Part shown: in pieces, positions 25,169-26,644 of the stretch | How the letters are laid out: every line of letters starts with the position of its first letter | How positions within the stretch are numbered: position 1 is the first letter of the stretch | Virus record (IMG/VR): IMGVR_UViG_3300032214_001145 | Coordinates: 1 to 60,679 of that record | Source: a virus | Taxonomy: Duplodnaviria; Caudoviricetes | Length of the DNA: 60,679 nt | Reading direction: 5' to 3' (one strand) | The notes under the pieces: generated by a model | Database searches by the model: none | What the model saw: only the letters and a program-made list of their open reading frames with translations | Told to the model about the DNA's origin: nothing | Made by a program: the position numbers and the translations under genes

Positions 25169-26644
25169 ATGAAAGCAACGATAATTGGTAGTGATTTACT
25201 ACAAAAAGATGGCTCAGTTAAAATTATTGAAATAAACACTAATACCTGCATCTCCAACGATGGTGCAAACTTATTAGATTATACGGCGTTATTCAGTGTA
25301 CTAATGGATAATGATATTACAGAATTTCATTATATATGGACTGAAGGAAAGGCGTATTTACCTTTGGATCAACCACATATTTTTCGTAATATATTACAAA
25401 CTAAATGTTCGGAAAACAACATATCTTTTAACGAACATATTGTACCGGCTAATTCAGTTACGGTACCCTATATAGAAGATGCTTCTCATAAATTTATTTT
25501 AAGACAAGCATTTGATACCACAGCATTAGTGGATGATTTATATTGTGCTGACAAATTTGAGTTTTTTAATTTAATGAGCGGATCTACATATTCCCCAAAA
25601 ACATATTTTACATCTGAAGAATTAAATTTAAATACTTTAGATGAAGTAGATTATACCACAACCAAGCCAAATCTTTTGATAAAATCAAAACAGGCTTCGT
25701 ATGATGTTATGACATATCCAGCAATATATAATGTTACTGATTCAAGCCAACTATCTGAAGTTATTGGTTCCGTTGAAAGTGGTCATTTAGTTCAAGAATT
25801 TATATTTTCTGAGGATAATGTAGTGGATGGAAGATATTCAACAATAAGAAGTATTGATATTATATATGGGCCTAATTTAGATATTATTAACATGGGAGGA
25901 TATACTCATTCTACTAGATTACCACTTACATTTAGTGAGGATGAATTTATTTCTGGTACTAGAAAGTTTAATCAAAAAACTAGACATAAATATATTACAA
26001 AATCTATTAGGAATCGAGCAGAAGGAAACGACTACCATACAGATGACGATTCAAATATTTTAAAATATGATGGTACTTTAGTAGATGTTGACACTATTCA
26101 ATTAGGTGACTATATTCGTTCTATTAACTTTACCGATACAAATGAAAACGAAGCGGCCACATTTACAAATAATATTGCCACATTTGGATGGACCGGTACA
26201 CTACCCCAATTAAACAATACATTGACACCAGTGCAATCGGAATTAGTGGGTATGGTATCAACATCGATAGAAATGGTAATGGTAAAAGTAACTTTAGCGG
26301 ATGGACGAACTTGGACAGAAGCACCAAATTCAACTTTTTTTATTGAAGAAAAAGACTCCACCGAAACCAGATGGGAGCTAATAAATAATTGTTATGTTGG
26401 TGATAAAATAGTTGTAACTGATTCAAATACAACCGAATTAAGGGCTGTAGAAATTACCAATTTAGAGATGGTATACGAAGCCAAAACAATATATACTTTA
26501 GATTTTGCACCATCAGATTTATTCTTAGTGGATGTTGGGGATAGCGATTTTGCAGTAATGCACAATGGTTGTTGGTGTGGTTGGAGTTACTGTGGTAATT
26601 GGTGTTATCAAAATTATTGTCCAACCTGTTGGGGGGAAAAATAA
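25169..26644 (+). CDS. Fusion of a circularly permuted ATP-grasp-like domain, a Hint domain and a C-terminal Cys/Trp-rich peptide
   Basis: N-terminal GSD..DG.VKIIEINTN, then PKT..LLIK..LVQEFI; Hint pattern ILKYDG..VDTIQLGDYIRS..VGDKI..IYTLD..DLFLV..VMHN; tail GCWCGWSYCGNWCYQNYCPTCWGEK. Confidence 0.7.
   Translation: MKATIIGSDLLQKDGSVKIIEINTNTCISNDGANLLDYTALFSVLMDNDITEFHYIWTEGKAYLPLDQPHIFRNILQTKCSENNISFNEHIVPANSVTVPYIEDASHKFILRQAFDTTALVDDLYCADKFEFFNLMSGSTYSPKTYFTSEELNLNTLDEVDYTTTKPNLLIKSKQASYDVMTYPAIYNVTDSSQLSEVIGSVESGHLVQEFIFSEDNVVDGRYSTIRSIDIIYGPNLDIINMGGYTHSTRLPLTFSEDEFISGTRKFNQKTRHKYITKSIRNRAEGNDYHTDDDSNILKYDGTLVDVDTIQLGDYIRSINFTDTNENEAATFTNNIATFGWTGTLPQLNNTLTPVQSELVGMVSTSIEMVMVKVTLADGRTWTEAPNSTFFIEEKDSTETRWELINNCYVGDKIVVTDSNTTELRAVEITNLEMVYEAKTIYTLDFAPSDLFLVDVGDSDFAVMHNGCWCGWSYCGNWCYQNYCPTCWGEK

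Follow-up and report, generated by a model that had tools for sequence, protein, structure and literature searches.

A phage gene product that combines a permuted ATP-grasp ligase, a reduced Hint domain and a cysteine-rich tail: a candidate self-processing proprotein

In polymorphic toxins, HINT domains are held to release the C-terminal domains (PMC3417536, in the accessible part of that source). In the ciliate BUBL arrangement, where a ubiquitin-like domain lies between two bacterial intein-like (BIL) domains, BIL2 is reported to make a lysine isopeptide with the C-terminus of the upstream domain, and no ATP is used (PMC8616854, accessible part). A different group of described proteins, the ATP-grasp enzymes YgiC, YjfC and glutathionylspermidine synthetase (GspS), joins the C-terminal carboxylate of a peptide to an amine; as far as the accessible part of PMC12568646 goes, YgiC and YjfC are peptidylpolyamine synthetases, and the RefSeq product name of YgiC is peptide--spermidine ligase. 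GspS homologues of phages have been reported, and the accessible part of that report (PMC9992855) does not mention a Hint fusion. Here, we describe a gene located at positions 25169-26644 (+ strand, stop codon counted) of the IMG/VR virus record IMGVR_UViG_3300032214_001145, a stretch of 60,679 nucleotides referred to below as the window. The 491-residue product combines both types of domain and ends in a tail with six cysteines. Such a layout, with an ATP-using ligase, a putatively self-cutting Hint and a six-Cys tail in one protein, was not found described: a full-text literature search, with most subscription journals outside its scope, returned no description of an ATP-grasp-Hint fusion, and within the same limits (few subscription journals) none of a Hint-released Cys-rich phage peptide.

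The window protein shares with BIL and PT-HINT proteins the Hint fold and a terminal His-Asn directly before a variable C-terminal piece, and the extra Hints present in some of its relatives match PT-HINT. It differs from them in that its own Hint lacks Cys1, TxxH and a Pfam match, in that an enzyme precedes the Hint instead of a secretion or filament domain, and in its cargo, which is a 25-residue Cys-rich peptide and not a toxin domain. YgiC, YjfC and GspS have the permuted order of its residues 1-281, with the D..ExN strand first, and YgiC and GspS are the best structural matches of this part. Unlike YgiC, the window domain is without about 90 N-terminal residues (judged from the aligned ranges) and without a sequence-family match, and unlike all three enzymes, it has a Hint and a tail joined to it. 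By fold, the 491-residue protein belongs to both Hint and ATP-grasp; by sequence, it belongs to no curated family.

The reading that we propose, and to which we would give an even chance, is that large uncultured freshwater phages produce ligase, Hint and tail as one self-processing proprotein, from which a single-turnover cleavage after Asn466 frees a disulfide-rich peptide. The N-terminal 281 residues would be a minimal permuted ATP-grasp carboxylate-amine ligase, akin to GspS and YgiC. The Hint domain of 180 residues would have lost the elements of N-terminal cleavage and splicing and retained the C-terminal His-Asn and the block-F acid. Asn466 would cyclize to a succinimide and the Asn466-Gly467 bond would be broken, once per molecule, to give two products: ligase plus Hint, at 52.6 kDa, and a peptide of 25 residues and ~3.0 kDa, whose six cysteines may form three disulfides outside the reducing cytoplasm, e.g., at lysis. 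The peptide would thus be the cargo, and the Hint a built-in single-use protease. The ligase would most likely join a carboxylate to an amine on the Lys-bearing C-terminal end of the tail or on a partner protein. This ligase step is the least secure of the mechanism, because relatives that lack the tail retain an intact ligase.

An earlier reading of the window, made from its letters alone (the sequence-only reading), had described the open reading frame (ORF), its coordinates and its motifs, all of which were confirmed by the ORF list and the translation. The protein consists of the ligase domain (residues 1-281, 25169-26011), a short linker modeled with low confidence (residues 282-286, 26012-26026), the Hint-fold domain with His465-Asn466 at its end (residues 287-466, 26027-26566), and the Cys/Trp/Tyr-rich tail, the proposed released peptide (residues 467-491, 26567-26641), all encoded on the + strand. 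For structure prediction and conservation analysis, we used an alignment of 119 sequences, composed of 11 close homologues and 108 representatives of at least 440 residues among the 150 listed of 274; representatives below 440 residues, probably fragments, were left out. Identity within this alignment goes down to ~20%. The AlphaFold2 model based on it has a predicted local distance difference test score (pLDDT) of 90.6 and a predicted template modeling score of 0.85, and pLDDT falls below 50 solely at residues 282-285 and in the tail (469-491). Conservation among 120 close homologues is lowest in the linker region (282-289), where mean pairwise identity is 42%; the values for the two folded domains are 72% and 71%.

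When residues 287-466 of the model were compared with known structures using VIA-align, the NpuDnaB intein was matched with Z 16.0 (root-mean-square deviation (rmsd) 2.0, 139 residues aligned), a bacterial intein-like domain from Clostridium with Z 15.9, BIL2 of the Tetrahymena BUBL1 locus with Z 15.8, and the hedgehog autoprocessing domain with Z 15.4. Foldseek returned 58 PDB chains at E ≤1e-3, the best at 1.5e-8, and a family profile matched the KlbA intein among PDB sequences with E 3.1e-9, from sequence alone. The Hint fold that the sequence-only reading had placed at about residues 290-466 was thus recovered, at residues 287-466. A match to Pfam PT-HINT was not obtained for this domain.

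The structural alignments put residue 1 of inteins at His290 or the preceding Tyr289. Family members show no conservation here, and the Cys, Ser or Thr nucleophile of inteins is missing. The block-B TxxH is missing as well: no His is conserved at 75% or more within residues 290-464, and the window Hint reads APNST where the complete Hints of relatives have TxxH. At +1, where splicing employs Cys, Ser or Thr, the window protein has Gly467, and close homologues have G, S, A, T, N, D or Y. With position 1, TxxH and the +1 nucleophile all missing, N-terminal cleavage and splicing are excluded on classical grounds, and the protein is not an intein, since three defining features were looked for and none was found. 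At the block-F His position of inteins, the window protein has Asp450, and one subclade has His. His465-Asn466, in turn, is located at the end of the Hint fold, at position 26566, and the structural alignments stop at residue 466. Of the 119 aligned sequences, 112 retain His-Asn and 117 retain Asn, so that Asn466 is conserved as well as the ligase residues are. In three relatives, Tyr replaces His (YS or YN), and nothing but a Cys-free stub of 3-7 residues follows. Asn cyclization still allows a Hint domain that lacks both nucleophiles to cut at its C-terminal end, and the predicted cleavage of the window protein after Asn466 by this route is well supported by comparison. Structural alignments and conservation thus agree with what had been read from the letters about this domain, namely His at position 1, no TxxH, and retention of block F and of a His-Asn that homologues were expected to conserve. 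A further suggestion, that the free amine of the +1 Gly would be a feature of the released peptide, did not hold: the +1 Gly is not conserved, and a free Gly amine is therefore not a selected feature.

The tail of the window protein, GCWCGWSYCGNWCYQNYCPTCWGEK, contains 6 Cys, 4 Trp and 3 Tyr, as the sequence-only reading had counted, begins with the +1 Gly, and has an average mass of 2998.4 Da unmodified. Tails of the 120 close homologues comprise 112 distinct sequences, with a mean pairwise identity of 59% overall and 46% at non-Cys positions. The tails of the close clade share the frame CxC-x4-CG-x2-C-x4-C-x2-C, which is followed by a Gly/Pro-rich stretch and by Lys plus a hydrophobic residue. 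Homologues had been expected to have a variable Cys-rich tail; the variability is borne out by the number of distinct tails, but the six-Cys frame is fixed in the close clade. The Cys count is even (6, 8, 10, 12, 14 or 16) in 91 of 92 tails with at least four Cys, and the single odd count, in P0129, includes Cys1 of a Hint left uncut by the sorting pattern. Even counts across differing tails suggest disulfide pairs and, by extension, a life outside the reducing cytoplasm. Lys is found in the last five residues of 92 of the 119 sequences, compared to 24% expected from composition. Neither the window tail nor four long tails from relatives gave a family in a Pfam scan. A metallothionein-like metal tail was considered as well and is disfavored by Cys counts of 6, 10 and 14 and by the aromatic content. 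In a metatranscriptome contig of run X17, both flanks match the window while 114 other letters replace 105 at 26579-26683; the replacement takes in the larger part of the tail and runs into the beginning of the gap that follows the gene, so a related strain has a different tail.

The same Cys counts bear on the possibility that no cleavage takes place, with the Hint being a dead scaffold and the tail staying on a two-domain enzyme as a small knob that binds metal or is held by disulfides. The Hint retains one of the four classical catalytic elements and has lost the other three, metal binding is possible for Cys-rich tails of this kind, and the AlphaFold2 model is uninformative on the tail. 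Yet counts of 6, 10 and 14 suit pairs better than Cys4 metal sites, and the His-Asn retained at the exact end of the fold, in sequences as distant as ~20% identity, suffices for C-terminal cleavage. Moreover, at least 11 relatives have Cys1 of a complete Hint at His-Asn or within two residues of it, where the same bond would be cut. We therefore consider an uncleaved protein quite improbable.

Different elements follow His-Asn in different relatives. Pattern-based sorting of the 119 sequences, which mis-sorted a few, gave 89 with tails that continue to the end; another Hint was assigned in 20, and an S74-like motif in 10. In the majority (type a), a Cys-rich tail of about 20-150 residues is present. 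In type b, a Cys-rich piece is followed by a complete Hint (Cys1, TxxH, terminal HN), and the protein usually ends with Lys. In type c, one or two complete Hints come directly, or within two residues, after His-Asn. In type d, a Cys-rich piece is followed by a domain that begins with Ser-Asp, and the few proteins of type e have stubs of 3-7 residues. The presence of a tail in homologues, which the sequence-only reading had made a point of, was thus found in part: most are Cys-rich, but some have Hints only or stubs. Pfam PT-HINT or Intein_splicing was detected in 4 of 4 Hint-bearing relatives scanned. Peptidase_S74 was detected in P0202 with E 1.9e-5, above the cut-off, and in P0166 below the cut-off, while P0162 gave no match. 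Types b and d place self-processing elements on both sides of the Cys-rich piece. Peptidase_S74, an intramolecular chaperone of trimeric phage fibers and spikes, cleaves before the leading Ser of Ser-Asp. In 5 of the 10 type d proteins, Lys directly precedes Ser-Asp, and a cut there would leave the Cys piece ending on Lys in these five, like most free tails. Relatives such as P0202 thus resemble Peptidase_S74 proteins in having a self-cleaving domain after the Cys-rich piece; the window protein differs in having no such domain.

The variants with two Hints recall ciliate BUBL loci: relatives P0123, P0124, P0131 and P0132 are organized as Hint - small domain - Hint. The window protein differs from BUBL in its single Hint, the presence of an ATP-grasp domain and its phage source, and the flanked piece in relatives is Cys-rich and has no ubiquitin fold. 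The likeness raises the possibility of conjugation, in which the C-terminus of the Cys-rich peptide would be joined to a Lys amine of a target (a protein of the virion or the host, or a partner), by the ATP-grasp domain in most members and by the second Hint, without ATP, where one is present. One of the best structural matches (Z 15.8) is to BUBL BIL2, which is reported to make a Lys isopeptide with the C-terminus of the upstream domain (PMC8616854, accessible part), the last Hint of relatives with this layout mostly lies before Lys, and the 48-residue product of the ORF downstream of the gene is Lys-rich. On the other hand, the window protein is without a second Hint, and joining of a peptide C-terminus to a protein Lys by an ATP-grasp enzyme is without direct support. 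Conjugation as the role of this protein strikes us as very unlikely.

Residues 1-281 of the model were aligned by VIA-align with E. coli YgiC (7uka; Z 10.1, rmsd 4.1, 201 residues aligned), GspS (2io7; Z 9.3), eukaryotic glutathione synthetases (Z 7.0-8.9) and trypanothione synthetase (Z 7.7). Unpermuted ATP-grasps (TTLL, ArgX/LysX, RimK) were aligned only from ~residue 50, with Z 5.3-6.5. The list of matches is coherent despite moderate Z values, and a circularly permuted ATP-grasp with the ExN strand at the N-terminus is the best match for the modeled domain, in line with the GspS-like order of motifs noticed in the sequence-only reading. Candidate Mg/ATP residues are Asp9 (conserved in 117 of 117 sequences), Glu21 and Asn23 (118 of 118 each), Lys172 (117 of 119) and Arg227 (118 of 119). 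An hhalign comparison placed Asp9, Glu21 and Asn23 over the D..ExN stretch of YgiC in a weak match (E 0.028, probability 1.8). Searches with this part of the protein gave no Pfam, NCBIfam or PDB sequence match beyond two chance-level Pfam rows. By analogy with the structural relatives, the Lys-bearing C-terminus of the tail, a polyamine or the small partner proteins could be substrates. That the ligase cyclizes or attaches the tail would be speculation, and the link between ligase and tail turned out weaker than had been suggested from the letters, as 13 of 13 tail-less or Hint-only relatives examined for them have the ligase residues.

Two small genes accompany the gene closely. The upstream one (24812-25114, + strand) codes for a 100-residue protein with six conserved Cys (CxxC ... 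CxxCxC ... C). By tblastn, it is located directly upstream in 73 of 80 related viral loci; in a set of 78 loci, 71 with over 0.4 kb of upstream sequence, ORF calling recovered it in 70. Among divergent loci, it is adjacent in 7 of 9: it adjoins the gene in L082, L083, L085, L140, L142 and L144, lies just downstream in the rearranged type d locus L147, and was undetected in L084 and L143. The 100-residue protein has no family or PDB match, and its profile found nothing below E 0.25 among PDB sequences. A search of the Atlas returned only viral clusters without a name, plus DUF6171 in 15% of one cluster, with score 0.89. Complex prediction of the 491-residue protein with this neighbor (score 0.15, mark 0.32) speaks neither for nor against an interaction. 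The downstream gene is a Cys-free, Lys-rich ORF of 48 residues (26696-26842, + strand) in the 238-nt gap 3′ of the gene, unannotated as it falls under the 50-residue cut-off of the ORF list, and without a Pfam match. It is directly downstream in 76 of 80 loci, with its frame open in 50 distinct sequences (tblastn), and a hidden Markov model detected it at the same position in 8 of 9 divergent loci (L082-L085, L140 and L142-L144, but not L147). As near-constant partners, the 100-residue Cys protein and the 48-residue protein probably belong to the same module as the 491-residue protein, judging by gene order. In the locus of tail-less P0240, present on metagenome contigs as two copies of one locus, the 100-, 48- and 253-residue genes (the latter a sulfotransferase-like gene described below) are all absent, which fits a link of the two small genes to the Cys tail (n = 1). 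A search of viral contigs for the loci of P0234, P0232 and P0198 gave none.

A constant head, a Hint, a variable tail and a small conserved gene immediately 3′ are also what an effector of the polymorphic-toxin kind would show. The Hint would then free an antimicrobial or anti-competitor peptide, the 48-residue product would protect, and the ligase would be an unrelated head. The extra Hints of relatives match Pfam PT-HINT, and release of toxins by HINT has been proposed (PMC3417536, accessible part). Against this, the protein lacks a secretion or trafficking domain and has an ATP-grasp at its N-terminus, the Hint of the window protein has no PT-HINT match, and tails of the close clade hold to one frame, with no swapping of folds. 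The 48-residue ORF is fairly conserved and shows no visible co-variation with the tails, although no dedicated co-variation test was made. An effector of this kind appears to us highly improbable.

Several observations weigh against the proposed release of a disulfide-rich peptide by a ligase-bearing proprotein. The ATP-grasp assignment is based on moderate Z (~10, with rmsd >4) and on a single profile match, a weak one. The ligase residues are intact in each of the 13 tail-less or Hint-only relatives that were checked (apart from Arg at Lys172 in one), so the ligase has a function that does not need the Cys tail. The tail itself has no confident structure (pLDDT <50) and belongs to no known family, and the C-terminal Lys is absent from one whole subclade. 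Some relatives have just 5-7 Cys-poor residues after His-Asn, and release of a Cys peptide therefore cannot be the whole function of the cut. Synteny among close relatives partly reflects shared descent, and tailoring-type genes nearby could have the Trp/Tyr-rich peptide or, equally, a glycan as the target.

The persistence of the ligase is what would be expected from a zymogen-like or regulatory cut, whereby the Hint takes off a tail that inhibits or targets the ligase, or sets the time of its activation. The ligase substrate would lie elsewhere (a polyamine, a small thiol peptide, the 48-residue protein or a host protein) and the Cys piece would be a plug or tag. Ligase residues are conserved whatever comes after His-Asn, stubs and Hint-only cargo included, the nearest structural relatives use small peptides and polyamines, and GspS homologues are encoded by phages according to the accessible part of PMC9992855. 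However, a disposable plug would be unlikely to hold a six-Cys frame over 112 distinct tails, and an even Cys count in 91 of 92 tails would be unexpected for it. In relatives, the far end of the Cys piece is set by a second self-cleaving domain, and in the sole tail-less locus (n = 1), both small partner genes are absent. On balance, we regard a purely regulatory cut as unlikely.

The proposed proprotein may also be viewed as a self-excising peptide precursor of phages that represents a new class of ribosomal peptide, a proposition that we consider rather doubtful. The Hint would unmask the N-terminal amine of the peptide, while the GspS-type ligase would be presented with its Lys-bearing C-terminus, and the product would be a three-disulfide peptide, cyclized head-to-tail or amidated or polyaminated at the C-terminus. 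The 100- and 48-residue proteins would aid maturation, the peptide would be released at lysis and act outside the cell, and the second Hint of relatives would provide C-terminal activation as a thioester, without ATP. Among systems already described, similar ones would be the borosin-type enzyme-fused precursors of peptides that ribosomes make and enzymes then modify (RiPPs), and the graspetides. In common with these, a short peptide is found at the C-terminus of an enzyme from a peptide-modifying superfamily, 2-oxoglutarate (2OG) oxygenase, radical S-adenosylmethionine (SAM) and sulfotransferase-like genes are present in the window, and a Trp halogenase gene is present in related loci. The differences are that the ATP-grasp is of the GspS class and not of the graspetide class, and that release would be by a built-in Hint and not by a separate protease.

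If the proposed cut happens, phages have a compact, protease-free route to small disulfide-rich peptides, with enzyme, single-use Hint cutter and peptide in one polypeptide. The diversity of tails, 112 distinct among 120, would then be an untapped natural library of Cys-framework peptides, and the protein would be a natural counterpart to engineered intein-based tools for peptide release and cyclization. The natural series of variants (tail only, tail and Hint, tail and S74, Hints only, stub) allows a part-by-part comparison.

The family is large. The window record (60.7 kb) is rated 18% complete, and since related contigs reach 230-334 kb, the virus that it comes from is a large phage. The nearest relative of its thymidylate synthase is a Flavobacterium phage enzyme (59.6% identity), and the stretch was found again in lake, river and other freshwater metagenomes from several studies. 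The 491-residue protein has 566 homologues at 90% clustering, the best 120 of which are 448-501 residues long and 61-98% identical to it, and its family comprises 274 representatives at 50% clustering. With such numbers, chance is no explanation for the gene. The Atlas clusters closest to it are 96-100% viral, and in the searches made here, members were seen solely in viral or metagenome records. Sequence-family searches with the whole protein gave two chance-level rows in Pfam (E ≤10), one row in PHROGs at E 0.36, zero matches in NCBIfam, and zero in the PDB by phmmer. No relative was detected by tblastn in 50,697 deposited phage genomes, a set that may omit close records, and megablast with 12 kb of the window gave no match. 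When each prokaryote species was represented by one genome, a scan yielded 75 pattern matches and 0 relatives; this set may likewise omit close records. Metatranscriptome contigs from 4 runs of 4 studies carry pieces of the gene and of the 48-residue ORF at ≥90% identity. The contigs come from RNA libraries, cover parts of both genes and are uninformative on strand, level or absence; they provide a weak hint that the gene may be transcribed. Promoter and terminator counts around the gene were not above those of shuffled sequences, and no + strand terminator was found 3′ of it.

A neighbor conserved in the close clade only is the gene for a 253-residue sulfotransferase-like protein (23432-24193, + strand), present in 73 of 80 loci and absent from four type b loci. 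Its AlphaFold2 model has pLDDT 92.6, and the top 14 VIA-align rows are all sulfotransferases (Z 8.4-5.8). Carbohydrate sulfotransferases are matched best (Z 8.4-7.0) and tyrosylprotein sulfotransferases lower (Z 4.5-4.9). Foldseek gave nothing at E ≤1e-3 (best 0.098), tblastn gave no match in the 50,697 phage records, and the profile found nothing below E 0.25 among PDB sequences. Residues P13, R14, S17, T18, R84 and S92 are invariant; they form a PRxxST loop and an R-x7-S pair, which we take to mark binding of 3′-phosphoadenosine 5′-phosphosulfate. A second sulfotransferase-like gene, recognized by its N-terminal motif only, is located at 29928-30500 (+ strand). Further upstream, an adenosine 5′-phosphosulfate (APS) kinase-like protein is encoded at 21222-21683 (+ strand; E 4e-17), followed by a small nucleotidyltransferase-like protein at 21680-22090 (+ strand), with matches of the nicotinamide mononucleotide adenylyltransferase type at E 4e-6. 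The APS kinase, the nucleotidyltransferase and the two sulfotransferase-like genes could make up a set for sulfate activation and transfer.

Downstream of the 48-residue ORF, a radical SAM protein of the twitch/SPASM-like type is encoded at 26883-27932 (+ strand), with Pfam Radical_SAM at E 1.4e-8 and NCBIfam N_Twi_rSAM at E 8e-16, below the cut-off. It is context only: the gene is present in 27 of 80 loci, in 24 of them near the expected place, and radical-SAM cross-links as the core chemistry were rejected for this low frequency. The wider region includes four 2OG-Fe(II) oxygenases in addition to the APS kinase and radical SAM. A flavin-dependent Trp halogenase (Pfam E 5e-93) is encoded ~3.6 kb upstream in 34 of 78 related loci (e.g., L024:6438-7670) and directly beside the 100-residue gene in L083. 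Trp halogenation in the window virus was rejected, as the window, an 18%-complete fragment, contains no halogenase.

The window is unusually rich in modification enzymes, more of which are encoded at 1041-2414, 3981-5549, 13395-15062 and 47965-50570; these stretches hold two further radical SAM proteins, a Nol-like carbamoyltransferase (E 4.5e-121) and two glycosyltransferases. Ten + strand genes of unrelated families between 22275 and 30500 have similar ends, of the form ...K/N-S/T-L-I, or -II, -MI or -LM. For most of them, the next start overlaps the stop, and the ending is conserved in alignments A3 and A4 as well. If translational coupling fixes the context of the start codon, the shared ending may simply follow from that; the gene for the 491-residue protein does not have an ending of this type. 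A 1575-residue protein encoded at 30555-35282 (+ strand) contains Ser/Thr/Gly-rich repeated blocks, with units ...SGSSQ... and ...TTSGLSSS..., and looks fiber-like; related loci hold relatives of it of 1642-2033 residues. Finally, a protein of 416-433 residues with the N-terminus MK.Y.HH.Y.KSLFYK..HNT and no Pfam match is encoded in related loci (L147:8368-9666 and L024:13559-14809). It is present in 23 of 78 close loci and stays in the cluster even in the rearranged type d locus L147.

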